Of a DNA stretch of 64,000 nucleotides, positions 24,035 to 62,002 are shown in pieces (position 1 is the first letter of the stretch; each line of letters opens with the position of its first letter). The notes beneath the pieces are model-generated. The model was not told the DNA's origin, made no database searches, and saw nothing but the letters and a program-made list of their open reading frames with translations. Origin of the DNA: Verrucomicrobiales bacterium (GTDB taxonomy: Bacteria > Verrucomicrobiota > Verrucomicrobiia > Limisphaerales > J093); NCBI GenBank assembly GCA_024233305.1, contig JACKPV010000028.1:93036-157035 (forward strand). The letters are read 5' to 3'. A program made the position numbers and the translations under genes.

Positions 24035-24130
24035 GCCCGATGGCGCATCGGCGCTCGTGAACACGGGACGCGGGTTCGCCGTCCAACGAACATTGACCCC
24101 GGCCAACCGGCGGGGCAGTCTGCCGGCTTG

Positions 24131-38625: not shown

Positions 38626-39279
38626 GACCTGCCCCCCGGAGACCTTCCGACCGCCCCGCCATTCCACGGCGCGCGGCGTTCGCAGGCTTCCGGGGAAGCG
38701 GACCGTAACATGCGCTTGCCGCGTTCGTCCAACTGTCCCACCTGCGCGACAACGGTGCTCGCCCCGCCTCGCGCTGGTGTTCCTCGGCGCCTCGCCCATG
38801 GCATCGAACGAGACATCGACCGCATGGCAACTTCCGCAGGCGGACGGCCCCACCAGAGGATAGGCATGGGTCGACTCCGTGATGGTCCCCTGCTTGCAGA
38901 CCCCGGCATCGCCGGCAACGTCCGCCCCGTCCAACGTGACCCGGATGCCGTCCCCGTTGATGGTGAGCCCGAGATCCTCGCTCCGCGCGCCAGGACCGAA
39001 CACCTCCCCCCGAAGGAGACGAGCCGGTACGGAGCCGGATTGGCGGGATCGGACCTGGTTCCAATCGGACGGCAGGCAGCCGCTGTCCAGCTCGGTGGCG
39101 CGCCACGAGTAACAGCCGTTCGAACCCGGGAACCGCTCGACAGAGCACGAGCCCCCCGCAGCGCCGGACGCACGCGAGGGGAGAAAATGGTCTCGCCTCC
39201 CGGCTGCGCTGCCACCGGCGGGCCCTGCATCCCGCGCCCTGTCGGGAGTCCACAAAAGCCCGGCGACGGGCCGGCAGAC

Positions 39280-39699
39280 TCAAGGCGCCGGAAGCCGGGT
39301 GAAGGCGGCGATGGGTCTCTTGAAGCCCGCCTTCTTCACCGCATCCATCGCTCCGACCACCTTGCCCCAGGGAGCGTTGGTGTCGGCGCGAATCGAAACC
39401 ACGGTGTCCGGATCCTCGTCGGCCCGCTGGCGCAGGGTGGCCTCGAGGGGATCGAGTTCAATCGCCTCGCGCCCGAGGTAGAAGTACGGCGCTTCATTGG
39501 CAATGGTGATGACCAAGCTGTCGTCCTGCGACGCGCCCTGGCGCCCCTCGCGGGATTCGGGCAGTGTGAGCCGGATGGCGGGCTGCATCTTGAACGTGCT
39601 GGTCGCCATCATGAACACCAGCAGCACCATCAATATGTCGATCAACGGCACGATGATGACCGCCGGCGGTTGACGTCGTTTGCGCTCGTAGAAGTTCAT
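39280..39699 (-). CDS. exbD: ExbD/TolR-family biopolymer transport protein
   Basis: The N-terminus is MNFYERKRRQPPAVIIVPLIDILMVLLVFMMATSTF. The start overlaps the exbB stop in an ATGA arrangement. Confidence 0.85.
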   Translation of the reverse strand: MNFYERKRRQPPAVIIVPLIDILMVLLVFMMATSTFKMQPAIRLTLPESREGRQGASQDDSLVITIANEAPYFYLGREAIELDPLEATLRQRADEDPDTVVSIRADTNAPWGKVVGAMDAVKKAGFKRPIAAFTRLPAP

Positions 39700-40370
39700 G
39701 ACCGCCGGCCTTGCGGCTCCTCGGATCCCTCCCCGCTCGAACGCCCCTTGCGCCTTCCCGACGGGGTGGGCTCGCGGTAAAGCCGGCGCAGCAGGTCGTC
39801 GAGCAGGTTCTCCATCTCGACGGCGAAGGTCTCGACCTTCTTGGTGAAGTAGCTCCAGGCCACGAGCGAGGGAATGGCGATCAACAGCCCCATGAGGGTC
39901 GTGTTCAGGGCGATGGCGATGCCCCGCGCCAGCACCGAATTGTCGCTCACCCCGGCCTGGCCGATGTCCCCGAACAACGTGATCAGGCCGTGAATGGTGC
40001 CGAGCAACCCGAGCAACGGCGCCACCCCGACGACGACCTCGAGAACCACCAGGCCGCGTTCGAGGGACACGACCTCCTGGCGCGCCCGGGTTTGCAGGGC
40101 ATTGCCGTTGTCGTTGCGCGGCCAGCCCAGATGCGCCACGGACGTGGCCACCAGCCGGCTGAGGGTTGAAGGACTTTTTTCACAGGTGCTCTGCACCAGC
40201 GGCAGATCATCCCGGCCCCGGCACTCCGCCAGCAACGTCTCGAGATCCGCCGGCACGACCCGGCTCCGACGCAGGGCCAGACCGCGTTCGACGATGAACG
40301 TGACGCTGACAATCGACGTCAGCACCAGCAACCCCATGAACGGCCCGCCCGCCAACAGAAAATCCCACAT
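39696..40370 (-). CDS. exbB: MotA/TolQ/ExbB proton-channel protein
   Basis: The start is trimmed to the ATG at 40370 (MWDFLLAGGPFMGLLVLTSIVSVTFIVER). The conserved C-terminal motif is LLGTIHGLITLFGDIG...ALNTTLMGLLIAIP. Confidence 0.85.
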   Translation of the reverse strand: MWDFLLAGGPFMGLLVLTSIVSVTFIVERGLALRRSRVVPADLETLLAECRGRDDLPLVQSTCEKSPSTLSRLVATSVAHLGWPRNDNGNALQTRARQEVVSLERGLVVLEVVVGVAPLLGLLGTIHGLITLFGDIGQAGVSDNSVLARGIAIALNTTLMGLLIAIPSLVAWSYFTKKVETFAVEMENLLDDLLRRLYREPTPSGRRKGRSSGEGSEEPQGRRS

Positions 40371-40399
40371 ACGGCTTCTTCTTCCGTCTCCGACCGCGA

Positions 40400-41482
40400 T
40401 CAATAGTAAAAGGTGAACCGGATGTCCCGGTAATCGCCGCCCACCAGCCGGACGACGTCCGGGGGCCAGCTTTCGTACGGCGATGGCTTCCGAATGGCAA
40501 GCTGACAAACCGCCGTGTAGAGGTCGCCCACATCCGATTCGGCCACGTTCATGTTGCTGACCCGACCCTCCTTCGAGAGCCGGAACTCGATCACCACCTT
40601 GCCCAACCGGTCGAGACTGAAACGCTGTTCCCGCAGCAGAGTGAACCAGCATTGCTGAACGGCATCCACGAGCTGGCGGTCGTAGTCGCCCAGGGGGCTC
40701 GCCTGAACATCGAGGCTCGACTGGACCGAGAAGCGCTTCACGCCGCCTTCCTGACGAAGCTTCTGACCGACCATTGCGCTGTCGGGATTGAGGCCGCGTC
40801 GCGCAAGCGCCTCGGCCACCGTTCGCGGTCGCTCGGGCGCCGACGGGCGGTTCGCCGCGTGGGGCAGCCCGGGCGAAAGCAGCGGGGTCAACGCGGAAGG
40901 CGGCTTCACCATCGCGAGATCGCCGGTTTCGGGCGACGGATCGATTTCGGCCGCGACCGGCTCGACCTCCTCGGCCGGCGCCTCCGCGCCGGGATCAGGC
41001 GCCGGATCATCGAGCGCAGCAAGGTCCGGAGGCGGTTCAGGCGGACTCGGCTGCAACGGCGCCGAGGCCGAGGCCCGCTCGGTATCCGCGGTCTTCATGA
41101 CCACTTCCTGCGTGCCATCCAGCGCGGGCTGGTCCAGATCCCGGGGCGCCGGGTTGGCCGCCTGCGAACTGACGGCGCCATAAAATTCCGTGTCCAGCGG
41201 AGACGTCGGAGCGGCCTGGGAGGGATCCACATCCACGAAGATAAGCGGCGCCCGCTGCTCAAGTTCACGACTCACGGCGGCCAGTTCCTCCCGCCGGGCT
41301 TCAGCCGCGCGCGCCGCGGCATCGAGCCGCAACAGGCGGGCCAGGGTCGCCATTGGTCCCGAGCGCCACCAATCCAGCCGGTCACCGATCTCGAGCACGG
41401 AGAACAACGTGGCGTGAAACAACAGCGAAAGCAGGAACGCCCGGACGATCGGTCTCGATCCCCGTCCGCGCCGCCGCTCCAT
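40400..41482 (-). CDS. TonB-like energy-transducer protein
   Basis: ATG at 41482 (MERRRGRGSRPIVRAFLLSLLFHATLF) gives an N-terminal anchor. A Pro/Ala/Glu-rich linker follows. The C-terminal GKVVIEFRLSKEGRVSNMNVAES resembles TonB_C. The gene lies next to exbBD. Confidence 0.55.
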   Translation of the reverse strand: MERRRGRGSRPIVRAFLLSLLFHATLFSVLEIGDRLDWWRSGPMATLARLLRLDAAARAAEARREELAAVSRELEQRAPLIFVDVDPSQAAPTSPLDTEFYGAVSSQAANPAPRDLDQPALDGTQEVVMKTADTERASASAPLQPSPPEPPPDLAALDDPAPDPGAEAPAEEVEPVAAEIDPSPETGDLAMVKPPSALTPLLSPGLPHAANRPSAPERPRTVAEALARRGLNPDSAMVGQKLRQEGGVKRFSVQSSLDVQASPLGDYDRQLVDAVQQCWFTLLREQRFSLDRLGKVVIEFRLSKEGRVSNMNVAESDVGDLYTAVCQLAIRKPSPYESWPPDVVRLVGGDYRDIRFTFYY

Positions 41483-41635
41483 TGCCGCCAGGTTGCTCAC
41501 CAAAGTTCAAGGATGCCGCACGGCCACCGGAGCGGCAACCGCAAGTTCCAAGCCGGCCCGTCAGCCGGACGGCCCACGCACCACGAGACGTCGGTGGCGT
41601 CCGGGTTACGATCGGCGATGAGCGGCGCAGGCGGT

Positions 41636-41869
41636 TCACCCTGAGGTCGGGCGGTCGCTGCGCCAGAGCATGATCAGGCAGCCGATGACGAAGGCCAGCG
41701 CGTGCAATCCCAAGACAGCGAGGAACGATCCTCCGAGCAGGAAGAGCCCGACGAGGGTGCAGACCAAGCTGATGCCCGCGCACAACGCCGGGCTGAGGCG
41801 GTCGTCGATCTCGGCCAGTTTGTAGCAGATCCCCGGCAGGATGATGAGCAAACCAATGGTCGTATACAT
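41636..41869 (-). CDS. Small hydrophobic membrane protein (about 77 aa, about 3 TM)
   Basis: ATG at 41869. MYTTIGLLIILPGICYKLAE...LVCTLVGLFLLGGSFLAVLGLHALAFVIGCLIML. No family was recognised. Confidence 0.4.
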   Translation of the reverse strand: MYTTIGLLIILPGICYKLAEIDDRLSPALCAGISLVCTLVGLFLLGGSFLAVLGLHALAFVIGCLIMLWRSDRPTSG

Positions 41870-41986
41870 GGCAGTGGTTCCGATCGGTGTTTGATGCGGC
41901 GACGGATGGACCGCCCCCACCTTGCGCCGCCCTCCGGCGGCCGCCAATTACAAGCCGCCGAAACCCGTGGAAACGCAACCCCCGGC

Positions 41987-43531
41987 TCACCGCACGGTCG
42001 CGAGGCGCGGATCGTCCAGATCGAGCCGGTACATGATCTGATTGTAGTCGTAGCGCGGCGTCGGGAACTCGTTGCCCGAGAAAGTGTTCGCGTACGTGCC
42101 CTCGAAGTAGATCCGCCGCCCGCCGTCCTCATCGAGAAAGGCATGGTGCACCGGGTTGTAGAAGCTGTAGCGCTCGTGGGTCACGATCTTCTTGACCTTG
42201 CGCCACGGACCAGTGGGCTCCAGGGCCTCGCCATACCAAACCTCGCCAAGCGATGACGTGCCCCCCTTCTCGACCGCGATCACCACCCAGCGTTGTCGAT
42301 GGGGATTCCAGTGCACCGAGCCGCGATGCAGCCGCACCCGCTTCCCGGTGTCCACGTCCGTCGGTGAATAATGCGCCTCGTCAGGGCGGATCGCACCGCG
42401 CGCCAGCAAGTCCGCTTCGACCCCGGCGTCTACCGGACGGCCTCCCGACCTCCAACCGAAGCGCAGCCTGCCGGACGCATCACGATCCAACTCCGACGCC
42501 GCCCCCTCCGGGCCCTCCCGAAAGCAGGTCCACGCCTCGTAACGCGCCGGGGCGAGCACCTCCTCCCACCGCGCCCGAACCCGCGCCGTCGGAAACACTT
42601 CTCCCAACAGGAAGAACCGCCCGTCGTCGGAACCAGAACGGAAGGGATGCGCCTGCCCGGGGAAGCACCACCGGGTTTCGGGCGTCAACCGCTGCACGAG
42701 TTCGAACTCCCGGGTCTCCTCGTTGAACACCGCCAAGCCGTGCCCGAGTTCCCGTCCCAGCGAAGCCATGTGCGCGTAATGGCAGACCAACCGTTCCCGG
42801 CCCGTCGCGTCCGGCAGCGTCAGGAAGGCATCCGCCCAAATGAGGCCCCGTTCCACCCCCAGACGGGCCACCGGCCGGCTGAAACCCTCGTCGTCCACGA
42901 AGTAATCGAGGTCCACGCCGCCGGACGGATCAAGGCCGCCTGGCCCCGGGAGGGCGGACTCGGCGCCCGCCATCCAGAAATGCCCGAGCGGGTAGCTGGC
43001 CCGCGAGGTGTCGCCCCAGAACCAGAACAACCGCCCGGCATAAGGCAGTGCCGACACCGAATCCTGCCCGACCACCTTTGCCGCTCCCAACGGGGCCCGC
43101 AGCGGCGCAGGTTCGCCCAGGAGCACGCTGTCACGGTAGATGCCCTCGCCCGTCACCCGGTAGAGGCGCTCGGCCAGGTTGACGCGCTGCAACCGCAGCT
43201 GCGTCCGCAATCCCGGCCGGGCCAGCAACCGGGTCCCGGCATAGCCGAAACCGTCCTTGGGGAATTCGTAGCCGTGACTGCGGACGAAGAAGAAGACCTC
43301 CTGCCCCATCAAACCCGGCTCGTTGAACGCCACCCAACCGGCGCTGTCACTGACGAAACGCAGGTGATGCACCGTCTCCAACTCGACCAGCGGCACCCCG
43401 CGGCCGGTGGCGTCGTCAACGATCTGAATGCCGAAAAAGGCATTGGTGTCTGGGCGGCCCGCCGGGATCGCGGCCATCGCCACGACCCAGCTCAAAACCA
43501 GCGGCCGGAGGGAAGCGGGAACGCTTCGCAC
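41987..43531 (-). CDS. Secreted protein of unknown function, last gene of the cytochrome operon
   Basis: GTG at 43531 lies 4 nt after the stop of the upstream cytochrome gene and gives the signal-like VRSVPASLRPLVLSWVVAMAAIPA. There is no CXXCH motif. The FWFWGDTS motif is vaguely beta-propeller/DUF4185-like. Confidence 0.6.
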   Translation of the reverse strand: MRSVPASLRPLVLSWVVAMAAIPAGRPDTNAFFGIQIVDDATGRGVPLVELETVHHLRFVSDSAGWVAFNEPGLMGQEVFFFVRSHGYEFPKDGFGYAGTRLLARPGLRTQLRLQRVNLAERLYRVTGEGIYRDSVLLGEPAPLRAPLGAAKVVGQDSVSALPYAGRLFWFWGDTSRASYPLGHFWMAGAESALPGPGGLDPSGGVDLDYFVDDEGFSRPVARLGVERGLIWADAFLTLPDATGRERLVCHYAHMASLGRELGHGLAVFNEETREFELVQRLTPETRWCFPGQAHPFRSGSDDGRFFLLGEVFPTARVRARWEEVLAPARYEAWTCFREGPEGAASELDRDASGRLRFGWRSGGRPVDAGVEADLLARGAIRPDEAHYSPTDVDTGKRVRLHRGSVHWNPHRQRWVVIAVEKGGTSSLGEVWYGEALEPTGPWRKVKKIVTHERYSFYNPVHHAFLDEDGGRRIYFEGTYANTFSGNEFPTPRYDYNQIMYRLDLDDPRLATVR

Positions 43532-43535
43532 CGGA

Positions 43536-45353
43536 TCAACCGGAGGATTCGTCCCCCGGCTTGCGGGCGCCGGGTCCTTCCGGCTTCGCGGGCGCGGCAG
43601 GTTCGGAGGCGGCGGCGAGGGTTTCCGTGTCGAGACCATGTTCCTCTTCATACCATTCCCGGGTGACTTTGCCATCCCACCAGGCCCAGTTCATGGGATA
43701 GGTGCCCGGAGCGAGGATCACGTGGTAGAAGTGCCAGACCACGATCGAGAGACAGGCGAGGATGGCCTCGTAGTAATGCACGGTGGTGGCCACATCGACC
43801 GCCCACCGGGGCAGCCACTGCGTCACCGGCATCTTCAGCCAGATCATCAACCCGGTCACCCCCATGATGATGGTGCCCCAGACCACCGCCCAGTATTCGA
43901 CCTTCTCGATGTAGCCGAACCGCGCGAACTTCGGCGGTTTCGGGGCGCGTCCCACGAGATACTGCGTGTTCCGGGCCAACTGGCCCAGGTCGTGCCGCGC
44001 CGGGGCCAGATCCCGCACCAAGCGGCGACCGCGCGCGGTGAACAGCACATAGAGGATGTGGTAGAAACCAAGCGCCAGCAGCACCACACCGGCAAACCGG
44101 TGCAGCCAGCGCCGGATCGCCTCGTCGGCGCCGAACATCAGCGCCAGCCACGAATCCGGGAACTTCAGGGCAAACCCCGTCAGCGCCAGCAAAATGAAGC
44201 TGCTCAACAGGATGAAATGCTGCACGCGCTGGGTCTGGTCCATCCGGGGCACCACCCGGTCCGACGATCGCTTCGCCGCGAGCGCCCGGTGGAGCCAGCT
44301 CAGGAAGCTGTGGAGAGTCATCATGCCCACCACCACGAAGATCATCGCCAGGTAAATCGCCCGGACCCAGCGGTTCACCGTGGTCCCGATGCCGTCGCTG
44401 GACCCGGACGAGAGGTCGAGGTCGAGGTGCACCCGGCCCAGCGCGAAATTTTCGGTGGCGCCGGGATGACACTGGCCACAGGTCTCGACCAGATGATTTG
44501 GGCTGATCGACGAGTCGGGATCGGTGGACGGCAGAATCTTGTGATACCCGTGACAGCTCGCACAATTGGCCGCGTGGGTGTCGCCCATCCGCGCCGCCAG
44601 GCCGTGGTAACTGTCGAAGAAGCTCTCCACCTGCCGGGCGGGCATCTTGAACTTGGTGTTGATCCGCTCCGAGGCATGGCATTTGGCGCAGATCTGTTCG
44701 GCGAGTTTCACCGAGGATACCGCGTTCAACGCCTCGATCCGGTGTTCAGCGTGGCAGTCGGTACAGGTGGGCGCTTCGCGCCGGCCGTCCTGCATCGCCA
44801 TCCCATGCACGCTCGCCGCCACGTCATCGGCCGCGTCCGGATGGCATTCCCCGCAGGTCTCTGCGAGCCGCGACCAGTGGAGGGGGGATTCGAGCGAGGT
44901 CGGGTGGGTGACATTGTGATCCCCATGGCAATCCACGCAGGTGGCCGCCGCGGTGTCCCCCGCCGCCAGGGCCAGGCCGTGCACACTGGCGCCATAGCTC
45001 TCCGACTGATCCTCGTGACAGGTGGCGCAGTCGATCCGCTTCGGGATTACACCGTCGTCGGGATGATCCGAAGTGATGTCGTCGTGGCAGGAGAAGCAGG
45101 TGTTGGTACCGTGCGCGGAGGCGGCGAAGATGGCCTCGTCGACGAAGACCGACACCTCGTTGCCATCGGCGTCCGTCTTCGTCATGTCAGGATCGGAGTG
45201 GCAGAGCAGGCAATCCTCGTCCGGAATCGCGTCCGCCGCCCGCAGACCGCCCACCATCATCAGCGCCGTCAGGACGGCGACCACCCGACTCCGTCGCGGC
45301 CTCCCCGAGCGCGGGGCCGGCCGGCGGCGGACCATTGTCAGATCACTGCTCAT
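43536..45353 (-). CDS. CbcL-like fusion protein: 9-haem c-type cytochrome domain + C-terminal cytochrome-b-type membrane domain
   Basis: Signal peptide RSRVVAVLTALMMVGGLRAADA. The nine CXXCH motifs are CLLCH, CFSCH, CATCH, CVDCH, CGECH, CTDCH, CAKCH, CASCH and CGQCH. Four to five TM helices follow with conserved His (RVQHFILL, WLHRF...FYHILY, VHYYEA...WHFYHV). The start may be 45365 (GTG), 45353 or 45335. Confidence 0.85.
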   Translation of the reverse strand: MSSDLTMVRRRPAPRSGRPRRSRVVAVLTALMMVGGLRAADAIPDEDCLLCHSDPDMTKTDADGNEVSVFVDEAIFAASAHGTNTCFSCHDDITSDHPDDGVIPKRIDCATCHEDQSESYGASVHGLALAAGDTAAATCVDCHGDHNVTHPTSLESPLHWSRLAETCGECHPDAADDVAASVHGMAMQDGRREAPTCTDCHAEHRIEALNAVSSVKLAEQICAKCHASERINTKFKMPARQVESFFDSYHGLAARMGDTHAANCASCHGYHKILPSTDPDSSISPNHLVETCGQCHPGATENFALGRVHLDLDLSSGSSDGIGTTVNRWVRAIYLAMIFVVVGMMTLHSFLSWLHRALAAKRSSDRVVPRMDQTQRVQHFILLSSFILLALTGFALKFPDSWLALMFGADEAIRRWLHRFAGVVLLALGFYHILYVLFTARGRRLVRDLAPARHDLGQLARNTQYLVGRAPKPPKFARFGYIEKVEYWAVVWGTIIMGVTGLMIWLKMPVTQWLPRWAVDVATTVHYYEAILACLSIVVWHFYHVILAPGTYPMNWAWWDGKVTREWYEEEHGLDTETLAAASEPAAPAKPEGPGARKPGDESSG

Positions 45354-45429
45354 GACACCTTTCACAGCCGTGAAATCGTTGTCCGCGCTCCGGCCCGGGC
45401 CCCGGCGCGAACACCCCGTTCTCCCCGGG

Positions 45430-47649
45430 CTAGTGGCTCAGGCGGGAGGCCATCGCGTAGACGATGAGGACCAGCAGGATGACCCCGATTCCGAAAAACA
45501 TGTAGCCGAAGGAACGCGCGATGTTCTTCCAACGCTCCCATTCGTCGCGGACGCGGTGCGCGTCCAACCGGCCGGTGGCCACCAACCGGTCGTACCAACG
45601 GCGGCGTTCGTGGAGCATCTCGCTCTTCGAGACGCGACCCGAGAAGATCACGGTGTCCATCGGGAACTTCTCCAGCCGGAAATGCGTGTTGAAGAAGTGG
45701 ATGGTGAAGATGAAGCCCGCGGCGAGCAGCGCCTCGTCCGAGTGCACGATGAGCGCGATGTTGATCACCCAGCCCGGCAGGAACCGGCTGAAGAACTCGG
45801 GGAACCACATCACCAGACCCGAGAGCCCGATGGCGAACACGCCCCAGAACACGGCGAAGTAGTCGAACTTCTCCCAGTAGGTCCACCGGTCGAACTGCGG
45901 TTTCGGTCCCTTGCCGAAGAACCACTTGTTATGCGCCACGAAGTCCCGCAGGTCCTGCATCGTCGGCACCATCGAATCCGGCCCGAACATCGCGGTCTTG
46001 ATCCGTTGGAAGCTGACCCGGCCCGTGGCGGGATCCCGCATTTCGCGCCGGTTGACCCAGGTGTTTCGCACCAGCGCCGCCAGGTGCAGCCCGAAGTAGA
46101 GGAAGGTGATGAGGGCGCCGAAATGGTGCAACGTGCGCGCCACGACCGGTCCCCCCATGACACTGAAGAGGGTCCTGGCCCATTCGGTGTAATAGAACTT
46201 GAGCGGCATGCCGGTGATCACCAGCAACAGGAAGCTCGTCACCACCAGGAAGTGCAGGAACCGGTCAAACGGCTGGAACCGCGTGAACCACTCGTCATCC
46301 TGCTGGGTGTTGATCTTCGCCTCCCGGAAGGTCTTCGAGTCATGCAGATAAAGGTAGATCGCCCGCGCCAGCCAGAGCAGGGTATGCGCTCCGAAGAAGG
46401 TGAACACCCCGATCAACAACCCGGTCATCAGCACGAAGGTCAGGTGCAGTTCGGGGTAATGCTCGCGGTCCAGCGGATTCGCGTGCGGCTGGTATTGCGT
46501 AAAGCCGACGGTCGCGTCCGGATGGCACCGGGCGCAGGTGGCCAGGATGTTCTCCGAGGAAAGCCGGGATGCCGGATCGGACGGCGGCAGCACGTCATGG
46601 TGGCCGTGACAATCGTAGCAGGCCGCCACTTCCGAAGCCACGTTCGGCTGCCCCAGGGCCATCGCCTTGCCGTGATAGGTGTCGCGATAGTGGGTCAAGC
46701 GATCCTCGTGACACTGGCCGCAACGCCGGTCGCTCGCCGCCTTGAAATGCCCGTTGACCGGCGGCTCGATCTCGTGCGCGCTGTGGCAATCCGTGCAGAC
46801 CGGCCCGCGTTTGTCCCCCTCGAGCGTCAGCTTGCCATGCACGCTGCGGTCGTAGACCTCCTCGACCTTCACGTGGCATTTCCCGCACGTCTTGGCCACG
46901 TTGAGGTGGTTGATCGGCGAATCCCGGTCGACGCTGCGCTTGATGTCGTGCACCCCGTGGCAGTCATTGCACGAAGGCGCGACGATCAGCCCCAGCTTGA
47001 GCAGGGCCTGGCCGTGAATGCTGTCGAGGTAGTGCGCGGCCGCCGTGCTGTTCTGGATCTGGTATTCCTCCGTCAGATTCGTGTTGCTGTGACACTTCGC
47101 GCAGGTCAACGGCAGGTTCAGTTTGAACACCGGGGATTGCGAGTCGCTGACCGGCAGAATGTCGTGGTGGCCGTGACAATCCGCGCAACGGGCCGCCGCG
47201 CTCGCCCCCATCTGCTGACTCACACCGTGAATGCTTCCCGCGTATTCCTCCGCCGCGCTCTCATGGCACTGGCCGCAGTCCACCGACCGCGCCCGGACCT
47301 CGTCGTCCGGGTGATCCCGGGTCAGGTCCGCGTGACAATCCACACAGTCCAGCAGACCGCCGTGGACCGAGGCGTCGGCCGTCCCCGCATCGACGAAGAT
47401 CGACACCTCCTGCCCGTCCGGCCCGGTCATCGTCAGGTCGGCGTCCCCGTGGCAATCCAGACATTCGCTGCTGGCGATGACGTCCGCCGCCTCCTCGACC
47501 GCGGCATCGTCCCCCGCCGCGTCCTGGGAGTGGAGCGGGAGAAATCCGGCCGAGCCCAGCAGGCTCAGCCAGAGCAGGGTGATCGCAATACGGCGCAGCC
47601 CGCTAGAGGCCGCCGTTGTGGCAGTCACTGCACAACCAACCAGTGTCAT
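45430..47649 (-). CDS. CbcL-like fusion protein: 11-haem c-type cytochrome domain + C-terminal cytochrome-b-type membrane domain
   Basis: Signal-like LRRIAITLLWLSLLGSAGFLPLHS. The eleven CXXCH motifs are CLDCH, CVDCH, CGQCH, CADCH, CAKCH, CNDCH, CGKCH, CTDCH, CGQCH, CYDCH and CARCH. About 6 TM helices follow with His-bearing segments (FLHFLVV, TLHHFGAL...GLHLAAL, ALIVHSDEA...FTIHFFNTHF). The start is uncertain (47706, 47649 or 47628) and overlaps the upstream gene. Confidence 0.85.
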   Translation of the reverse strand: MTLVGCAVTATTAASSGLRRIAITLLWLSLLGSAGFLPLHSQDAAGDDAAVEEAADVIASSECLDCHGDADLTMTGPDGQEVSIFVDAGTADASVHGGLLDCVDCHADLTRDHPDDEVRARSVDCGQCHESAAEEYAGSIHGVSQQMGASAAARCADCHGHHDILPVSDSQSPVFKLNLPLTCAKCHSNTNLTEEYQIQNSTAAAHYLDSIHGQALLKLGLIVAPSCNDCHGVHDIKRSVDRDSPINHLNVAKTCGKCHVKVEEVYDRSVHGKLTLEGDKRGPVCTDCHSAHEIEPPVNGHFKAASDRRCGQCHEDRLTHYRDTYHGKAMALGQPNVASEVAACYDCHGHHDVLPPSDPASRLSSENILATCARCHPDATVGFTQYQPHANPLDREHYPELHLTFVLMTGLLIGVFTFFGAHTLLWLARAIYLYLHDSKTFREAKINTQQDDEWFTRFQPFDRFLHFLVVTSFLLLVITGMPLKFYYTEWARTLFSVMGGPVVARTLHHFGALITFLYFGLHLAALVRNTWVNRREMRDPATGRVSFQRIKTAMFGPDSMVPTMQDLRDFVAHNKWFFGKGPKPQFDRWTYWEKFDYFAVFWGVFAIGLSGLVMWFPEFFSRFLPGWVINIALIVHSDEALLAAGFIFTIHFFNTHFRLEKFPMDTVIFSGRVSKSEMLHERRRWYDRLVATGRLDAHRVRDEWERWKNIARSFGYMFFGIGVILLVLIVYAMASRLSH

Positions 47650-49084
47650 ATTCTTCGCCCGGATGCCGGAAGGGCTGTCCCTTCGCATCCAGTTGATCCA
47701 GTTCATCCCCGGAGCCCTGGGCCAGGATGATGTGGCAGGCGTCGCAACGACTCAGTTCGAGCACCTTCTCACCATCCTCGGTCTTGTGATTGTCGTCGTG
47801 GCAACGGAAGCAACCGGGCCATTCCTTGTGGCCGATGTTGTTCGGATAGCTCAGCCAGCTGGCCTTCATCGCGGGGAAGAAGTTCCGGCCATAGATCGCC
47901 CGGACCTCCTCGACCGCCTTCGCCACGACGTTCGGATCCTGGTCGCGGTACTTGGATTGAATGAAATCGCCGATCTCCGACATCGCCTCGTCCTTCGTCG
48001 AGTACTCCTGGACCAGGGCGTAGACGGCGTTCGTCTTGATGTACGGCAACGCGCGGTCCAGCCGGCCCAGGCTGATCGCCAGGTTCACCGCCTTGTTCGG
48101 CGAGTGGAAGTTGTGCGCCGGACGGTTGTGGCAGTCCATGCAGTCCATCCGCCGGACCTTCGACTCGTCCACCTCGTCCTCGTAACCGTCCGCCCGGTAG
48201 ACCGTGACCTGGCCTTCCCGGTCGGTGACCCGCACCCAGGGAATGGTCTGTCGGGATTCGTCCTCCGCGAAGTACTCGACCTTGTTGGCCACATTCATGT
48301 GCCAGTGGATACCGCTGGTCGGGCCGCGCGTCGGGTCGGCGCCCCCCACCTTGAGTTCGAGCTTCACCGAATACTCGGAACCCTCCTCGTCACCCTGGAA
48401 CGAGCGCACCGTGCGCACGACATCACCGACGAAGGACTCCGGCCAGTGGCACTGCTCGCAGGTGTCCTGGGCGGGACGCAAGTTCTTGATGGGGGTCGGC
48501 ACCGGGCGGGGATACTTGTTGAACAGGGTCGCATAGACCTGGTAGCTGCCCGACAGCTTGGCCCGGACGAACCACTCGGCGCCGGAACCGATATGGCATT
48601 CGACGCACGACACCCGGGCATGCGCGCCGTCCTGATAGGCCACGCGCTCCGGCTCCATGACCGTGTGGCACACCTCGCCGCAGAAGGTCGTGGATTCGGT
48701 CAAATGAAAGGTCTGGTAGCTGCCCAGCGCGGTCAGGAACAGGAACCCGATGCTGCAACTCGAGAAGATCAACAGTGTCCGGCGATGCTTCGGGCTGGCC
48801 AGATCGATGACCAGCGCCCGGGGCTCGCGGCTGCGGTGCAGGCGGCGACGTTCCACCAGGATGCCGGCCACGAACAGGGCGATCCCCAGAATCATGAAGC
48901 CGGGCGCCACCAGAAAAGCCAGGATCCCCACGTACGGATTCGACGATCCGGCGAACAACTCGAGCAACCAGAGCAGGACAAAGGCGAAGAAGGCGGCAAT
49001 CACCACCATCAAGCCCGAAAGGCTCACCCAGTTCTGCCACAGCCTCGCCTTCCCGCCGCCGTGTCTTTCAGTTTCCTGACTCAT
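47603..49084 (-). CDS. ImcH-like / NapC-NirT-related membrane multihaem cytochrome (3 TM + 7 haem motifs)
   Basis: ATG at 49084 (MSQETERH...). Three N-terminal TM helices. The six CXXCH motifs are CVECH, CEQCH, CMDCH, CFRCH, CDACH and CSDCH. One CX3CH motif (CGEVCH, 48665..48682) is also present. Confidence 0.8.
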   Translation of the reverse strand: MSQETERHGGGKARLWQNWVSLSGLMVVIAAFFAFVLLWLLELFAGSSNPYVGILAFLVAPGFMILGIALFVAGILVERRRLHRSREPRALVIDLASPKHRRTLLIFSSCSIGFLFLTALGSYQTFHLTESTTFCGEVCHTVMEPERVAYQDGAHARVSCVECHIGSGAEWFVRAKLSGSYQVYATLFNKYPRPVPTPIKNLRPAQDTCEQCHWPESFVGDVVRTVRSFQGDEEGSEYSVKLELKVGGADPTRGPTSGIHWHMNVANKVEYFAEDESRQTIPWVRVTDREGQVTVYRADGYEDEVDESKVRRMDCMDCHNRPAHNFHSPNKAVNLAISLGRLDRALPYIKTNAVYALVQEYSTKDEAMSEIGDFIQSKYRDQDPNVVAKAVEEVRAIYGRNFFPAMKASWLSYPNNIGHKEWPGCFRCHDDNHKTEDGEKVLELSRCDACHIILAQGSGDELDQLDAKGQPFRHPGEEYDTGWLCSDCHNGGL

Positions 49085-49325
49085 ACGCAACTGCCCGATT
49101 CATCCGCCGTTCTTTTTTCCATAAGCCTGCCGAAGCCTCTCCACTGCGGGAAACCCGGCACGCCCAAGAGGCTACAAAAACGTCGGAAACCTGCTTCGCA
49201 CCAATTGGCGAGGACCAACCGTTTCTTGCCATTCCACCTGACAACCCCCGCCACAAATGCCGCCTGACACCCTCCGCCACCCCGTGTTAGCCTCCCCCAC
49301 CCTGAAACGTCGCCTCATTCACGTC

Positions 49326-51800
49326 ATGAACATCACGAACCCAGCCCCCACCCCGCGCCGCCCCGGCCCCCACGCCCCGGGCCCGCTGCTGGCGCGCCTG
49401 GCCCTCCTCGGTCTCCTGTCCCCCGCCGCCGGATACGCCGTGGAACTCGCCAACGCCGTGGTCGTACGCCCGCCCCACCCCCACCGCGCCGTGGACCGGG
49501 CCGTGACCATGCTCGTCGATGAGGTCGGAAAACGCGCCCGCCTCCGCTGGACCGTGACCACCGAATGGCCCCGCGACGGCCGCCCGGCCATCGCCGTGGG
49601 CGAGGTATCCGACCGCCGCGCTCTGACCGGACCATGGGCCGCGCTGGAAGCCGATGGGGGCCGGCCACCCTCAGCGGAAGGATTCCACATCCGCGTCACA
49701 AACGGGTCCGAAACCCCGGGCGTGCTCCTCGCCGGCCACGACCCGCGCGGGGTGCTCTTCGGCGTGGGACACCTGCTGCGGCATCTCGAAATCCGCCCCG
49801 GAAGCGTCACCCTTCCCGACGATTTCACCGTCACGACCGCGCCCCGCCAGCGACTCCGCGGCCATCAACTCGGGTTCCGACCGAAGACCCATTCCTACGA
49901 CGCCTGGGACGTGGCCCAATGGGAGCAGTATTACCGCGATCTCATCGTGTTCGGCGCCAACGCCATCGAGTTGATGCCGCCCCGCACCGACGACGCCGCC
50001 GACAGCCCGCACTTTCCGCTGCCGCCAATGGAGATGATGGGCCGCATGTCACAGCTGGCGGATGATTACGACCTGGACGTTTGGATCTGGTACCCGGCGA
50101 TGGACCGGGATTACGCCGACCCCGCGACGGTGGAACGGGCGCTGCACGAATGGCGCGAAGTCTTCGAGCAACTCCCGCGAGTGGACGCAGTGTTTGTGCC
50201 GGGCGGCGATCCCGGGCACACGCCGCCCCGAACGTTGATGAGCCTCCTCGCCCGGCAAAGTGCGTCGTTGCGCGAGGCGCATCCCGGGGCGGAATTGTGG
50301 GTGTCGCCGCAGGGCTTCGACCGGCAGTGGCTGGACGAGTTCCTCGACCTTCTGCGCCACGATGGCCCGGACTGGCTCGCCGGCGTGGTTTTCGGCCCGC
50401 AAGTGCGGATGAGCCTCCCCGAGTTGCGCGCGGCGATTCCCTCCCGCTACCCGATCCGGCATTACCCTGACATTACGCACACCCGCCAATGCCAGTATCC
50501 GGTGCCCGATTGGGACGTCGCCTTCGCGATCACCGAGGGACGCGAATGCATCAACCCGCGGCCCGTGGACCAGGCGGCCATCTTCCGGTTGCTGCAACCG
50601 CACACCGTGGGTTTCCTGACCTACTCGGAGGGCTGCAACGACGACGTGAACAAGGCCGTCTGGAGCGCGCTCGGGTGGGATCCGGAGCAGCCGGTGATCG
50701 ACATCCTGCGCGAATACAGCCGGCACTTCATCGGCCCCGACTTCGAGGAGGGGTTCGCGCAGGGGTTGCTCGCGTTGGAAAGGAACTGGCGCGGCCCCGT
50801 GGCGGCGAATCCCGGCATCGAAACCACGCTCCGACAGTTCCAGCAGATGGAACGTCAGGCCGGCCCGGCGGTGAGGGCGAACTGGCGTTTCCAGCAGGCC
50901 CTCTTCCGCGCCCACTACGACGCCTTCATCCAACGTCGCCTCGCCCGCGAAACGGCCCTCGAACAGGAAGCCACCGACGCCCTGCAACAGGCGGACAGGA
51001 ACGGAGCGCTCTTCGCCCTGCGCCAGGCTGAAGCCACGCTGGATCGGGCCCTCACGGAACCCGTCGCCCCGGACTTGCGCGCGCGCATCCGCGAGCTGGC
51101 CGAATCGCTCTTCCAAAGCATCCGCATGCAACTCAGCGTGCCCCGGCACGCCGCCATTGCGGTGGATCGCGGCGCCAGCCTGGACACCCTCGATTACCCC
51201 CTCAACAACCGCCGCTGGTTGCTCGAGCAGTTCCCCCGTATCCGCGCCCTGCCAACCGAGGCCGCGCGACTCGAAGCCATCCGGACCCTCGTGGACTGGA
51301 CCAATCCCGGTCCCGGCGGTTTCTACGACGATCCGGGCAATCCCGCCCGCCAGCCGCATCTGGTCCGGCAGCTGCCGTTCCCGGAAGACCCGGCCAGTTA
51401 CCGCTCGGCCAAGACCGGGTTCGAGGAAGGCGACGTGGTGGACGATCCCGCGGACCAGCCCGAAGGCGCCTTGCGTCTGTCCTGGATGGACCACGCCGAA
51501 ACGCTGTGGGATCAGCCCCTCCGGTTCCACTACACCGACCTTGATTCGGCAGCGCGCTACCGCGTCCGTGTCGTCTATGGTGGCGACAGCCCCCGCCGCC
51601 GCGTCCGCCTCGCGGCGGGGGACAACTTCGAGATCCACCCGTTGCAGGCCCGGGAGAACCCCTATCACCCGCAGGAATACGCGATTCCAGCCGCCGCCAT
51701 CCGGGACGGCGAACTCACCCTCACCTGGACGCTCGAACCGGGCCTTGGCCGCAACGGACGCGGCTGCCAGGTGGCCGAAGTCTGGCTGATCAAGGAATAG
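49326..51800 (+). CDS. Secreted glycoside-hydrolase-like protein (GH20b/GH67N-like N-domain + TIM-barrel-like core)
   Basis: ATG at 49326 with signal LLARLALLGLLSPAAGYA. EGFHIRV...GVLLAGHDPRGVLFGVGHLLRHL resembles the N-domain of GH20/67/115-type enzymes, followed by RGHQLGFRPKTHSYDAW. The family assignment is tentative. Confidence 0.5.
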   Translation: MNITNPAPTPRRPGPHAPGPLLARLALLGLLSPAAGYAVELANAVVVRPPHPHRAVDRAVTMLVDEVGKRARLRWTVTTEWPRDGRPAIAVGEVSDRRALTGPWAALEADGGRPPSAEGFHIRVTNGSETPGVLLAGHDPRGVLFGVGHLLRHLEIRPGSVTLPDDFTVTTAPRQRLRGHQLGFRPKTHSYDAWDVAQWEQYYRDLIVFGANAIELMPPRTDDAADSPHFPLPPMEMMGRMSQLADDYDLDVWIWYPAMDRDYADPATVERALHEWREVFEQLPRVDAVFVPGGDPGHTPPRTLMSLLARQSASLREAHPGAELWVSPQGFDRQWLDEFLDLLRHDGPDWLAGVVFGPQVRMSLPELRAAIPSRYPIRHYPDITHTRQCQYPVPDWDVAFAITEGRECINPRPVDQAAIFRLLQPHTVGFLTYSEGCNDDVNKAVWSALGWDPEQPVIDILREYSRHFIGPDFEEGFAQGLLALERNWRGPVAANPGIETTLRQFQQMERQAGPAVRANWRFQQALFRAHYDAFIQRRLARETALEQEATDALQQADRNGALFALRQAEATLDRALTEPVAPDLRARIRELAESLFQSIRMQLSVPRHAAIAVDRGASLDTLDYPLNNRRWLLEQFPRIRALPTEAARLEAIRTLVDWTNPGPGGFYDDPGNPARQPHLVRQLPFPEDPASYRSAKTGFEEGDVVDDPADQPEGALRLSWMDHAETLWDQPLRFHYTDLDSAARYRVRVVYGGDSPRRRVRLAAGDNFEIHPLQARENPYHPQEYAIPAAAIRDGELTLTWTLEPGLGRNGRGCQVAEVWLIKE

Positions 51801-53781: not shown

Positions 53782-54351
53782 TCAGACGGTCTCCGTCCTG
53801 GCGTAAACCACCATCTCGCCGTCGCGGCGCAGGTCCTCCGGATGGTAGCGCGGGATGGGCATTTCGAGGTGCTTGAACTGCACCGGCGCGGTCTTCTTGT
53901 CGACGATGCCCAAGGCCACCGCCACGCCGTAGATGATTGCTTCCGGGCGGGGCGGGCAGCCGGGAATGTAGAAGTTCACCGGGACGAGCTTCTCGACCGG
54001 ACCCAGGACGGAATACATGTCGTACCAGATGCCGCCCCCGCACGCGCACGAGCCGATGGCGAAAACCAGCTTCGGCGCGGGCATGGCTTCGTAGGCGCGT
54101 TGGAGGGCCTTCGCCGTCGAACGCATGGCCGGTCCCTGACAGAGCATGACGTCGGCGTGCCGGGGTGAGCCCACCAGACGAATGCCGAACCGTTCGGCGT
54201 CGTAATACGGGGTCAGCGCATTGAGCACCTCGATGTCGCATCCGTTGCACCCGCCGCTGTTGGCGTGGTAGACCCACAGCGAGCGCCCGAACATTTTCTG
54301 GCAGAGGTTCTTCAACATGGTGGGATGATCCCGCGAGAAGCCCGGCTTCAA
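53782..54351 (-). CDS. Group 4 [NiFe]-hydrogenase small subunit (NuoB/HycG-like)
   Basis: SLWVYHANSGGCNGCDIE, GSCACGGG and IPGCPPRPE are the NuoB/HycG cluster ligands. The start is TTG at 54351 (overlapping the upstream stop) or ATG at 54318. Confidence 0.85.
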   Translation of the reverse strand: MKPGFSRDHPTMLKNLCQKMFGRSLWVYHANSGGCNGCDIEVLNALTPYYDAERFGIRLVGSPRHADVMLCQGPAMRSTAKALQRAYEAMPAPKLVFAIGSCACGGGIWYDMYSVLGPVEKLVPVNFYIPGCPPRPEAIIYGVAVALGIVDKKTAPVQFKHLEMPIPRYHPEDLRRDGEMVVYARTETV

Positions 54352-54872
54352 TCCAGCTCGATTTCGATGTCGTCCACGACCGGTTGCCCATCGAGATAGG
54401 CTTGCGAGCGGAAGACCCAGCGCTCGTTTTCCAGGTCATCAAACCGGTACCCCTTCATCTTCAACTCCTCGAGCTTCGAGGGTTCCTTGAAGCATCGCCC
54501 GCATCGTTGGCAGGTGCTCATGAACAGCTCAAGGCGTTGTTGGATGTCGCCAATGGCCGGCGTGGCGTTCTCGAACTCGTGGCTCATGGTGATCGCCTTT
54601 TCGGGACAGACATCCGCGCAACGCCCGCAATAGGTGCACCGGCGGCCGAGGTATTTGATGATGCGGATTTCCTGACAGACGTCGTACACGAGAATCTCGC
54701 GGGCGGGGCAGTTGCTGGCACAGCCGCCGCAACCGATGCATTTGGCGGCGTCGAAGACCGGCCGACCGCGGAATCGCGCCGGCAAGGGCGAGGATTGCGC
54801 CGGATAGGGCAAGGTGACCCGGCCCGCCCGCAGACAGAGCACCGCTTCCTTCAGTTTGCTGGTAATGGACAT
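54348..54872 (-). CDS. 2x[4Fe-4S] ferredoxin-like subunit (NuoI/HycF-like)
   Basis: The two cluster motifs are CIGCGGCASNCPAREI and CTYCGRCADVCPEKAI. Confidence 0.85.
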   Translation of the reverse strand: MSITSKLKEAVLCLRAGRVTLPYPAQSSPLPARFRGRPVFDAAKCIGCGGCASNCPAREILVYDVCQEIRIIKYLGRRCTYCGRCADVCPEKAITMSHEFENATPAIGDIQQRLELFMSTCQRCGRCFKEPSKLEELKMKGYRFDDLENERWVFRSQAYLDGQPVVDDIEIELD

Positions 54873-54894
54873 CGTTGGCGTTGGCGCGGGGAGT

Positions 54895-55815
54895 TCAGTA
54901 ACCGAAACCAGCCAGCACGAGGGCCACGAAGGAGACCCCCACGAGGCCGCCGTAATAGCGCAGGGCTTGATCGATGCGATAGCGGGCGTGCGTCGCGGCC
55001 ACCAGCGTGACGAGAAGCACCAGCACCAGCACTTTCGCCCAGAAGAGCAGCCAACCGATCGGGAAGACCAGGTGGCTCCCCCAGGGAATGAACAAGGCCA
55101 CGAACAGGCTGCTGTAGATCACCAGGCGCACCATCTGAGCGTATTTGAAGACCGCCAGTTTGGGACCCGAGTATTCAATGAGCGGGCCTTCCATGATCTC
55201 CGTCTCCGCCTCCGCGATGTCAAAAGGCACGCGCTGCACGAAGGCCTGGAACGAAAGCAGCATCACCGCCAGCATGAGCAACCCCGACCATGGCACGCCG
55301 CCACCCGCGTAGACCGAGCCGTCGAGCACCGTCTCCAGCCGGAAGGTGCCGGTGTTCACGGCGCCGATGATCAGGGTGATCGCAAAGAGCGGCTCGAGCG
55401 CGATCATGGTGATCATCTCGCGGCTGATGCCGATGAGGGAAAAGGTCGAACCGGCCGCCAACCCGGCGAGCAGCGTGCAAATCCCCGCCAGCGTCAACAG
55501 GTAGACCAGCAGGATGATGTCCCCCGCCCCCGCCAGCGGGACCGGCGCGCCGAGGGGAATCAGGCAGGCGACGGTCAGCACCGTGGCCAGCGCCAGGTGC
55601 ACCGCGAACCGCTGCATCCACGGGCTCTCCCCGGATTCGATATCCTCCTTGCCGAGCAGTTTCAGCAGGTCGTAGTAGGGCTGCAGCAACGGCGGCCCCT
55701 GCCGCGACTGGATCCGCGCGGTGACCTTGCGCAGCAGGCCCTCGAACAACGGGGCCAGCGCGAGAACCACCACCACATTCGCGAACGACCGGAGGATGAG
55801 GATGAGCACTTCCAT
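54895..55815 (-). CDS. Membrane subunit NuoH/HycD-like
   Basis: About 8 TM helices. The motifs LLRKVTARIQSRQGPPLLQPYYDLLKL and PFDIAEAETEI are NuoH/HycD signatures. Confidence 0.85.
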   Translation of the reverse strand: MEVLILILRSFANVVVVLALAPLFEGLLRKVTARIQSRQGPPLLQPYYDLLKLLGKEDIESGESPWMQRFAVHLALATVLTVACLIPLGAPVPLAGAGDIILLVYLLTLAGICTLLAGLAAGSTFSLIGISREMITMIALEPLFAITLIIGAVNTGTFRLETVLDGSVYAGGGVPWSGLLMLAVMLLSFQAFVQRVPFDIAEAETEIMEGPLIEYSGPKLAVFKYAQMVRLVIYSSLFVALFIPWGSHLVFPIGWLLFWAKVLVLVLLVTLVAATHARYRIDQALRYYGGLVGVSFVALVLAGFGY

Positions 55816-55888
55816 CACGAGATACCGGGCGCGCTTCGGCTCCCGGCGTTCGGGCTTCGTTCGGGTTTCGGATTTCGGCCTTCAGCGT

Positions 55889-61433: not shown

Positions 61434-62002
61434 CGCATCACCTCCATCGCCGGTTGAACCACCCTTGGCCGGGACGAACCGCCGGACCTCACGAGCAGCC
61501 CGCCTAGGAGCTCCGCCAGCGCCTCGACCGTGCGCTGCACCGGTTCGCTGAGCGCACAGACAGCGTCGTTCCCCCATCGCATGGCAGCCGCGCCCCCCCC
61601 GCCCTGCGCAACGGTCCGGGGCTGGACGCCCAGCAAGCCAACCTTCCGGCGCCCGTCGCTTTCGATCAACCGGGCGAGCAGGCCGAGCGCCAGCTTGTGG
61701 GTCGAAACCTGCGGATAACGCGCGGTTATTTCGTCGGTCTCGAGCAGCACCACCGAACCGGGCGGGCCGCGGAATTCGGTGGCGTCGAGGAAGAGCACCC
61801 GCTCACAACCCGTGGCCGCGATGGCGTCGAGCAGGCGCTCCGGCTCCGTGCCGGCGAACAGGACCGGTTCAACCCCGGCGCCCGCCAGTTGCTCGGCCAG
61901 GCACATCCCGAGGGCATCGTCGCCCTGGCCGACGTTCCCCACCCCGACCACACAGACCCGGCCGGTCAGGAGCGCTTCGAGCTGTTCACGCAGTCCGGGC
62001 AT
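61430..62002 (-). CDS. Hydrogenase maturation endopeptidase (HycI/HybD-like)
   Basis: ATG at 62002 overlaps the upstream stop (ATGA). GVGNVGQGDDALG, FLDAT and VSTHK supply the Asp/Asp/His metal ligands typical of these proteases. Confidence 0.75.
   Translation of the reverse strand: MPGLREQLEALLTGRVCVVGVGNVGQGDDALGMCLAEQLAGAGVEPVLFAGTEPERLLDAIAATGCERVLFLDATEFRGPPGSVVLLETDEITARYPQVSTHKLALGLLARLIESDGRRKVGLLGVQPRTVAQGGGGAAAMRWGNDAVCALSEPVQRTVEALAELLGGLLVRSGGSSRPRVVQPAMEVMR

Follow-up and report, generated by a model that had tools for sequence, protein, structure and literature searches.

In the Geobacter model, ImcH- and CbcL-type genes are treated as separately encoded alternatives, each specific to a range of redox potential, and the partners of Geobacter ImcH belong to the PpcA family. 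The locus described here, from a Verrucomicrobiales bacterium, brings both gene types together. It occupies positions 41987-49084 on the minus strand of a 64-kb window (the whole stretch of DNA analysed, taken from contig JACKPV010000028.1 of assembly GCA_024233305.1; all positions are window coordinates) and consists of an ImcH-type gene (A), two consecutive CbcL-type genes (B and C) and a gene without haem motifs (D). This cassette is widespread, the present locus being one example, and its homologues in verrucomicrobia are already catalogued. We favour the reading that genes A-C form the inner-membrane stage of an anaerobic respiratory chain, which would lead from the menaquinone pool to periplasmic c-type carriers, with acceptors that are likely extracellular or periplasmic.

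A catalogue published in 2018 lists a single ImcH homologue and four CbcL homologues for Verrucomicrobia, 11-haem CbcL proteins included (PMC6295460), and the preprint that characterises ImcH also names Verrucomicrobia among the carriers. He et al. (2017) proposed a verrucomicrobial porin-cytochrome system, with eight haem sites and a porin of at least 20 strands, and extracellular electron transfer (EET) to humic substances by bog Verrucomicrobia (PMC5615132). In September 2026, two Limisphaera isolates were reported to respire ferric citrate and ferrihydrite, a result presented as the first dissimilatory iron reduction in the phylum (PMC13608581). According to the same study, MK-7 is the sole quinone of Limisphaera, alternative complex III is found instead of a bc1 complex, and the genomes list inner-membrane cytochromes with 6-11 haems; their G+C content of 65.2-65.8% is close to that of the window (about 66%). 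With these papers, the statement in a preliminary description of the locus that the lineage is not known for EET is out of date. Neither PMC5615132 nor PMC13608581 named the inner-membrane component as ImcH or CbcL, and it is to this step of the EET system proposed for Verrucomicrobiota, unnamed in earlier papers, that ImcH and CbcL are assigned here. In another lineage, the accession numbers of the ImcH and CbcL homologues of Desulfuromonas acetexigens follow one another directly, and both homologues are expressed on electrodes (PMC12133095); the numbering suggests that the two genes are adjacent.

The four genes of the locus run in the same direction and lie close together:

47603..49084, minus strand: gene A, predicted ImcH-family seven-haem inner-membrane quinol dehydrogenase, 493 amino acids (aa)
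45430..47649, minus strand: gene B, predicted CbcL/MtoC/MtrH-type protein with an 11-haem periplasmic domain and a FdnI/HydC-type dihaem cytochrome b
43536..45365, minus strand: gene C, predicted nine-haem CbcL-type paralogue of B, 609 aa
41987..43531, minus strand: gene D, predicted secreted beta-propeller, glycoside-hydrolase-like protein, 514 aa

The gene calls and the spacing bear out the tight, partly overlapping and co-directional arrangement described previously. Gene B begins either at GTG 47628, giving 732 aa (NCBI call), or at ATG 47649, giving 739 aa (Logan call), and the overlap with A is accordingly 26 or 47 nt. The gap between B and C measures 64-76 nt and that between C and D 4 nt. 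In all four frames the G+C content at third codon positions is 0.82-0.87, which argues that all of them are coding.

The assignment of gene A to the ImcH family, within the NapC/NirT superfamily, is well supported by sequence and architecture. Hydropathy analysis places hydrophobic segments at approximately 19-50, 51-82 and 104-125, read as three N-terminal transmembrane (TM) helices, and the published helices of the Geobacter sulfurreducens protein (GSU3259) lie at 13-35, 45-67 and 100-122. Directly after TM3 stands CGEVCH, a CX3CH motif, at position 137, followed by six CXXCH motifs at 162, 211, 317, 427, 449 and 487; the positions tabulated for GSU3259 are 132, 156, 205, 311, 428, 448 and 486. 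The resulting spacings are nearly equal (25/49/106/110/22/38 in A against 24/49/106/117/20/38 in GSU3259). ImcH homologues have been defined by three TM helices, an atypical CX3CH beside the TM domain and six CXXCH motifs (PMC6295460), and gene A shows all three features; the count of three helices and seven haem motifs given previously thus agrees with both the hydropathy plot and the motif scan. A similar spacing comes from the same phylum: Oter_2584, the ImcH homologue of Opitutus terrae, has the same architecture and a spacing of 24/49/106/109/21/38 (PMC6295460).

Family searches point the same way. Gene A scores 38.5 bits against the Pfam NapC/NirT family PF03264 (cut-off 24.1) over residues 106-193, a hidden Markov model check proposed in the preliminary description, and it matches the NrfH family TIGR03153 with an E-value of 6e-11; its only sequence match in the PDB is NrfH of D. 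vulgaris (2j7a_C, E 0.008). The pocket around haem 1 is also retained. According to the ImcH preprint, Gln179 is an unusual distal ligand of haem 1, and the quinol pocket contains three conserved residues that can be protonated, Glu127, Lys173 and Tyr188. The equivalents in gene A are Q184, E132, K178 and Y193 (495-aa numbering), all shifted by +5 relative to GSU3259, as is the CX3CH histidine (H142, H137 in GSU3259). Across 27 homologues, E130, K176, Q182 (493-aa numbering) and the CX3CH histidine are invariant, and Y191 is at least 90% conserved. Identity to GSU3259 is 41.9% over 167 aligned residues of a machine-read N-terminal fragment from the preprint supplement, in which only the first ~180 residues are readable; for this fragment, the value falls within the 31.5-49% range published for ImcH homologues outside Geobacter. 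Gene A differs from GSU3259 in its length (493 against 507 aa), in an interval between haems 4 and 5 that is 7 residues shorter, and in its setting: it adjoins CbcL-type genes, whereas the locus numbers GSU3259 and GSU0274 (CbcL) are far apart in G. sulfurreducens. The earlier label of ImcH-like therefore holds, on the PF03264 score, the motif spacing, the pocket residues and the 42% identity.

Genes B and C are likewise well supported, from sequence comparison, as fusions of the CbcL/MtoC/MtrH type, in which a multihaem c domain is joined to a HydC/FdnI-type dihaem cytochrome b. Gene B carries 11 CXXCH motifs followed by a membrane domain, for which the AlphaFold2 model (pLDDT 69) shows six long membrane helices, as had been described. 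Gene C carries nine CXXCH motifs followed by a similar membrane domain, also as described, but hydropathy finds five hydrophobic helices and a hydrophilic C-terminal tail in place of the expected six. In the published catalogue of CbcL/MtoC/MtrH proteins the number of haems varies, and one homologue has four TM helices (PMC6295460). The cytochrome b family PF01292 is matched by C with 51.3 bits and by B with 32.2 bits (cut-off 30.1), the formate dehydrogenase gamma subunit family TIGR01583 with E-values of 7e-18 and 3e-13, and the sequence of Escherichia coli FdnI (1kqf_C) with 1.5e-11 and 8e-6, respectively.

The haem ligands of FdnI (H18, H57, H155 and H169) each align with a histidine in C and in B, and the corresponding H466, H508, H636 and H651 (B numbering) are invariant among 34 sequences (32 B-type homologues together with B and C of the window). 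The only significant PDB fold match of the B model is again 1kqf_C, with an E-value of 1e-4 and a TM-score of 0.74 on the target. The two membrane domains thus have both the cytochrome b family matches and the paired histidines by which the preliminary description had proposed to judge them, and its designation of the fusions as CbcL-like passes at the levels of sequence, architecture and, for B, fold. B and C share with FdnI the four-helix dihaem b fold and, by homology, a quinone site that would face the cytoplasm. FdnI forms a subunit of its own, fed by FdnGH, whereas in B and C the b domain is fused to a multihaem c domain; both have one extra TM helix before it, and B has another after it.

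Within the family, B is linked to CbcL by the architecture and haem spacing that it shares with a catalogued homologue, Oter_2603 of O. terrae (729 aa, 11 haems, six TM helices; PMC6295460): 39/23/30/28/44/28/30/25/34/28 in B and 37/21/30/28/44/28/30/25/34/28 in Oter_2603. The two O. terrae genes, Oter_2584 and Oter_2603, are about 19 locus tags apart; here A and B overlap and a nine-haem paralogue follows. Compared with G. sulfurreducens CbcL, the likeness lies in the fused architecture with its conserved histidines, in the nine haems of C and in the six TM helices of B. The differences are the 11 haems of B, the five TM helices of C, the haem spacing of C (38/23/30/28/30/25/42/28 against 23/25/23/24/29/28/43/28 in GSU0274) and the presence of two paralogues in tandem. 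B and C are 29% identical end to end and keep the same four histidines; C parallels B through the first nine haems and is without the last two haems and the last TM helix of B. The two are anciently diverged paralogues.

For the first five haems, the closest solved sequence is PDB entry 28pb_A ('Cytochrome c', 278 aa), which matches residues 61-196 of B (E 1e-15) and 51-209 of C (E 6e-12) and shares with both the motif SHPDDG...C..CH. It was set aside as a reference, being labelled only 'Cytochrome c' and having a motif spacing unlike that of GSU0274.

The occurrence of the cassette in other genomes was assessed from both ends. A scan of one genome per species with gene A returned at least 597 genomes with a relative of A. 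The sample anchored on ImcH-like genes, 81 sources in total, drew on the 80 loci listed by the scan, on other related loci and on the window itself. A CbcL-type gene accompanies the ImcH-like gene at 49 of these 81 loci. When only the 55 loci with 4 kb or more of DNA on each side are counted, a CbcL-type b domain is present in 39 and lies at most 1.5 kb away in 29. The adjacency spans Verrucomicrobiota, Acidobacteriota and Ignavibacteriota/Bacteroidota; the one-operon consolidation, previously presented as special to this genome, is hence found in many genomes of three phylum groups. The reverse test took B-type orthologues in metagenome contigs as its anchor: here an ImcH-like gene stands directly upstream in 30 of the 60 loci with enough upstream DNA and a C-type gene downstream in 12 of 53. 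In the ImcH-anchored sample, for its part, a CbcL-type gene is lacking within 10 kb of many ImcH-like genes. The adjacency of ImcH and CbcL is therefore frequent but not obligate.

The A-B-C order itself recurs in about ten genomes of Verrucomicrobiia, where the typical order is monohaem c, tetrahaem c, Fe-S protein, NrfD, (monohaem c), ImcH, 11-haem CbcL and nine-haem CbcL (for example L002, L004, L010, L011, L019, L020 and L021). The tetrahaem/Fe-S/NrfD trio has the composition of Geobacter Cbc4 (CbcSTU). Some of these loci add a nine-haem cytochrome of ~750 aa with an MtrC/MtrF domain (54.6 bits), and cytochrome c maturation genes are also linked to the cassette in relatives. In Acidobacteriaceae an 11-haem CbcL-type gene directly precedes the ImcH-like gene; in Ignavibacteriota and Bacteroidota, CbcL-type genes with 13 and 19 haems precede it and more cytochromes follow. 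Opitutae, Akkermansiaceae and Luteolibacter show another order: a cytochrome with eight haem sites (seven CXXCH and one CX4CH), a barrel protein of ~730 aa, a monohaem cytochrome c and ImcH. Across the 81 loci, the eight-haem cytochrome adjoins the ImcH-like gene in 23 and the barrel in 15. This pair matches the porin and eight-haem clusters described for verrucomicrobia (PMC5615132); the window differs from such clusters in having neither a porin nor a periplasmic cytochrome.

Two side observations concern these loci. The order of Opitutae, Akkermansiaceae and Luteolibacter was seen in L008, L009, L022, L032-L035, L038, L040, L051, L055, L061 and L083, and its outer-membrane barrel has no match in Pfam. 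In three metagenome-assembled genomes labelled as Chlorobiaceae, Ignavibacteriaceae and Bacteroidetes (L074, L078 and L081), CbcL-type open reading frames (ORFs) with 18-19 CXXCH motifs stand beside 13-haem ones upstream of the ImcH-like gene, with a PetB-type cytochrome b and further cytochromes downstream of it. These clusters are far larger than that of the window. ORFs with 14 haems occur on the downstream side of the ImcH-like gene in L078 and also in L069 and L075.

Gene D stands apart from this pattern. Its true start is GTG 43531 and not ATG 43675, as first proposed, and the resulting 514-aa product is identical to the public call P0121 ('hypothetical protein H7A47_04080, Verrucomicrobiales bacterium'). 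The description of the protein as secreted and non-haem stands: the N-terminus is signal-peptide-like, and there is no haem, Fe-S or other cofactor motif. D has no function-assigned family in Pfam or NCBIfam. It belongs to a very large family in Planctomycetota and Verrucomicrobiota, some members of which are annotated as DUF4185, with one fused to a GH5 cellulase domain. The AlphaFold2 model (pLDDT 84, pTM 0.85) is a beta-propeller; Foldseek places it nearest to a putative hydrolase of Bacteroides (4hbs, E 1e-10), then to GH93, GH43 and sialidase propellers. D is, as modelled, a beta-propeller glycosidase-like protein. Homologues of ~60% identity adjoin BNR, SASA and DUF4185 genes, not cytochromes, and no homologue of D was found at any of 80 ImcH-anchored or 80 B-anchored loci. 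The conserved module comprises three genes and not the four counted before. A 631-aa protein encoded after the B-type gene in L003 was compared with D and is not homologous.

Four further genes follow D on the same strand (39260-41947):

41636..41869, minus strand: ORF for a 77-aa small membrane protein, downstream of D and called in the sister assembly
40400-41503, minus strand: TonB-like gene, weak match to tonB_Cterm
39696-40652, minus strand: ExbB gene, Pfam MotA_ExbB
39280-39699, minus strand: ExbD gene, Pfam ExbD
39274-39260, minus strand: intrinsic terminator, the first convincing one after gene A in a terminator scan, behind ExbD

Since this terminator is the only convincing one, the transcription unit may hold eight genes, from A through ExbD, and D is probably co-transcribed with the cytochrome genes. 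A sigma-70 promoter scan of 39000-49600 gave no match. The order B-C-D-77-aa ORF is retained in only one close relative (L090, ~79% nucleotide identity), in which C and D overlap and the 77-aa product, at the same position, is 80% identical. The 77-aa ORF has no family match. TonB-ExbBD genes are not beside the cassette in relatives, L090 included, and in more distant relatives none of the 77-aa ORF, TonB-like, ExbB and ExbD genes adjoins it. D and TonB-ExbBD are local neighbours outside the conserved cytochrome module.

A comparison with the sister assembly GCA_024233225.1, whose contig JACKPX010000013.1 (L087) is collinear with window positions 35430-64000, revealed a sharply bounded difference within the cassette:

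45517..48695, strand not applicable: divergent allele block, from pairwise alignment with the sister assembly

Over the 3,179 nt of the block the two assemblies differ at 579 positions (18%), and over the other ~19 kb of the comparison at 21 (~99.9% identical). The block extends from a point in A just after TM3, at the CX3CH motif, to ~29 codons before the stop of B; the two assemblies agree in C, D and all flanking genes. No haem motif is lost in either allele. The ratio of nonsynonymous to synonymous divergence between the B alleles (dN/dS) is 0.16, with dS 0.68, which indicates that both are under purifying selection. The window allele and its upstream junction were seen independently in a Logan contig (L001, SRR15882951). 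The sister allele of A is split by single-base indels, which could reflect either a genuine frameshift or faulty sequencing. The block is most simply read as a mosaic produced by homologous recombination, with crossovers in the most conserved segments; the alternative is a strain-chimeric assembly. The L090 lineage was considered as the source of the window allele of A-B and rejected, as it has ~79% DNA identity to both alleles; the 98% amino-acid match to L090 in the C-terminus of B reflects conservation. Such a strain-level swap of alleles suggests that, within the population, the respiratory chain varies in these cytochromes.

Taking the observed family memberships, ligand residues, membrane-domain fold of B and conservation of the cassette as a starting point, we infer which way the electrons flow, what accepts them and whether A, B and C divide the work according to redox potential. 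The host would be a verrucomicrobium that ferments and is facultatively anaerobic. To judge from its homology with NrfH and ImcH, A would oxidise menaquinol in the pocket beside haem 1, at the periplasmic face, with protons released to the periplasm and electrons passed along the seven haems; the step would be electroneutral, as has been argued for Geobacter ImcH. For B and C, the homology with FdnI would place the quinone site at the cytoplasmic face, and electrons would cross the membrane through haems bC and bP, with a chain of 11 or 9 periplasmic c-haems behind the FdnI-like dihaem b. Quinol oxidation by B or C would release protons inside the cell and drive electrons outward through the membrane field, in line with the argument made for CbcL. 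This placement of the quinone sites, at the P face in ImcH and the N face in CbcL, follows published analyses. In Geobacter the CbcL arrangement has been associated with lower-potential acceptors, and the role that defines ImcH is in the respiration of high-potential extracellular ones; the potential-tuned exits proposed in the preliminary description would be a speculative analogy with that organism. Run in reverse, the CbcL architecture would be an electrogenic quinone reductase. The final acceptors would likely be Fe(III), humic quinones or similar compounds, outside the cell or in the periplasm, with periplasmic and outer-membrane components encoded elsewhere in the genome. The pyruvate:ferredoxin oxidoreductase-like enzyme and the formate-hydrogenlyase-type group 4 hydrogenase of the window fit a fermenter that gains from an external electron sink.

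We regard this respiratory role of A-C as somewhat more probable than not, and several points weigh against it. The function of A-C in verrucomicrobia is a prediction. The link to CbcL comes through Oter_2603 and not through the sequence of GSU0274 itself; C has five TM helices against six in CbcL; the PF01292 score of B is barely over the cut-off; and the model of B is of modest confidence, the ligation by histidines being judged from the alignment. There is no periplasmic shuttle, porin or outer-surface cytochrome within the 64-kb window. Apart from the genes described, no ORF of at least 100 aa in the window has two or more CXXCH motifs, and a tblastn search with the conserved neighbours of relatives (monohaem c, Fe-S protein, NrfD, eight-haem cytochrome and outer-membrane barrel) found none of them there, which confirms the earlier remark that no shuttle or porin-cytochrome conduit is visible. 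Neither a periplasmic carrier nor a porin-cytochrome or outer-surface cytochrome was found in ~10 kb beyond one window edge, where the genes seen all belong to a formate-hydrogenlyase-type cluster. Finally, what most often adjoins the ImcH-like gene in relatives is a gene for a class I monohaem cytochrome c, directly upstream in 46 of the 81 loci, and such a neighbour fits delivery to oxidases or periplasmic reductases equally well.

This last point leads to an alternative to which we give a lesser but appreciable chance, namely that the cassette is a general quinol:cytochrome c oxidoreductase feeding periplasmic or aerobic enzymes (cbb3, caa3, NrfA, peroxidases) via small class I cytochromes. 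The lack of a bc1 complex in Limisphaera-type verrucomicrobia would leave room for such an enzyme, but in Limisphaera alternative complex III already does the job of bc1 (PMC13608581). A gene for a SCO1/CusF copper chaperone in the window is in keeping with the idea. The monohaem gene, however, was not found in the window by tblastn, and in many Opitutae and Akkermansiaceae loci it lies between the porin-cytochrome pair and ImcH, where its product could be the shuttle of the conduit. The haems of Geobacter ImcH are, moreover, of low potential (-150 to -358 mV). It is also conceivable, if rather improbable, that B, C or both run in the direction of FdnI, drawing electrons from donors in the periplasm or outside the cell, reducing menaquinone at the cytoplasmic face and generating proton-motive force, with A re-oxidising the quinol at the periplasmic face in a periplasm-to-periplasm loop or in a complex of A and B. 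For FdnI, quinone reduction is the native reaction, homologues of the CbcL/MtoC/MtrH type are present in metal oxidisers as well as metal reducers (PMC6295460), and the opposite faces of the two quinone sites have been noted in the literature; the organism, on the other hand, looks like an organotrophic fermenter.

The same data bear on a related proposal, held to be just as improbable: that the haem domain of ImcH has co-adapted with the CbcL-type protein of 11 haems, the two working as a complex or as a quinone loop with a quinone site at either face of the membrane, instead of as independent alternative exits, and being exchanged as a unit between strains by recombination. Such a pair would explain both the overlapping genes and a 3.2-kb block that covers exactly the haem domain of A and gene B. 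The 26-47 nt overlap, with A and B overlapping or abutting in the relatives checked, and the joint transfer of the two in the block likewise speak for the loop. But half of the B-type loci (30/60) have no ImcH-like gene directly upstream, ImcH-like genes often lack a CbcL-type gene within 10 kb, and the edges of the block lie in its best-conserved surroundings, the very places in which crossovers would occur in any case. Least probable of all, to the point of being close to discounted, is a role of D as the real partner, an unrecognised periplasmic redox enzyme fed by C or by the whole cassette. D does begin 4 nt past the stop of C, the C-D-77-aa order persists with a C/D overlap at ~79% nucleotide identity, and the family has no function assigned in Pfam or NCBIfam. 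The confident model of D is nevertheless a beta-propeller, and every PDB match to it is a glycosidase or a sialidase; cofactor motifs are absent, distant homologues sit among BNR, SASA and DUF4185 genes or, in one case, are fused to a GH5 cellulase, and D is missing from all 160 ImcH or CbcL loci.

The preferred assignment of A-C to an outward respiratory route does not overturn current understanding. Outside Geobacter, ImcH and CbcL are often part of one cassette, and marker-gene surveys of iron and humic respiration should account for that.

Several other genes lie in and beside the window. Divergent from A and 172 nt away, at 49257-51800 on the plus strand, is a gene for an 847-aa protein with a signal-like N-terminus and no match in Pfam, NCBIfam or a PDB sequence search. 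The minus-strand cluster at 53782-63916 is of the formate-hydrogenlyase type and encodes a group 4 [NiFe]-hydrogenase small subunit, a 2x[4Fe-4S] protein, a NuoH-like subunit, a fused 30-kDa/49-kDa large subunit, two antiporter-like subunits, and Fer4_22 and NAD-binding proteins; just past the window edge (L086) follow a HycI protease gene and a molybdopterin formate-dehydrogenase-like gene. At 26827-31590 on the plus strand is a single-chain pyruvate/2-oxoacid:ferredoxin oxidoreductase-like protein of 1,587 aa, unusually long for the family, with POR_N, PFOR_II, POR, ferredoxin and TPP_enzyme_C domains. Two plus-strand genes at 24128-25093 and 25338-26309 comprise a CusF-SCO1/SenC fusion and, beside it, a 323-aa ORF with only a partial match to an IS200-like Y1 transposase. 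CusF-SCO1/SenC proteins are copper chaperones for the assembly of haem-copper oxidases.

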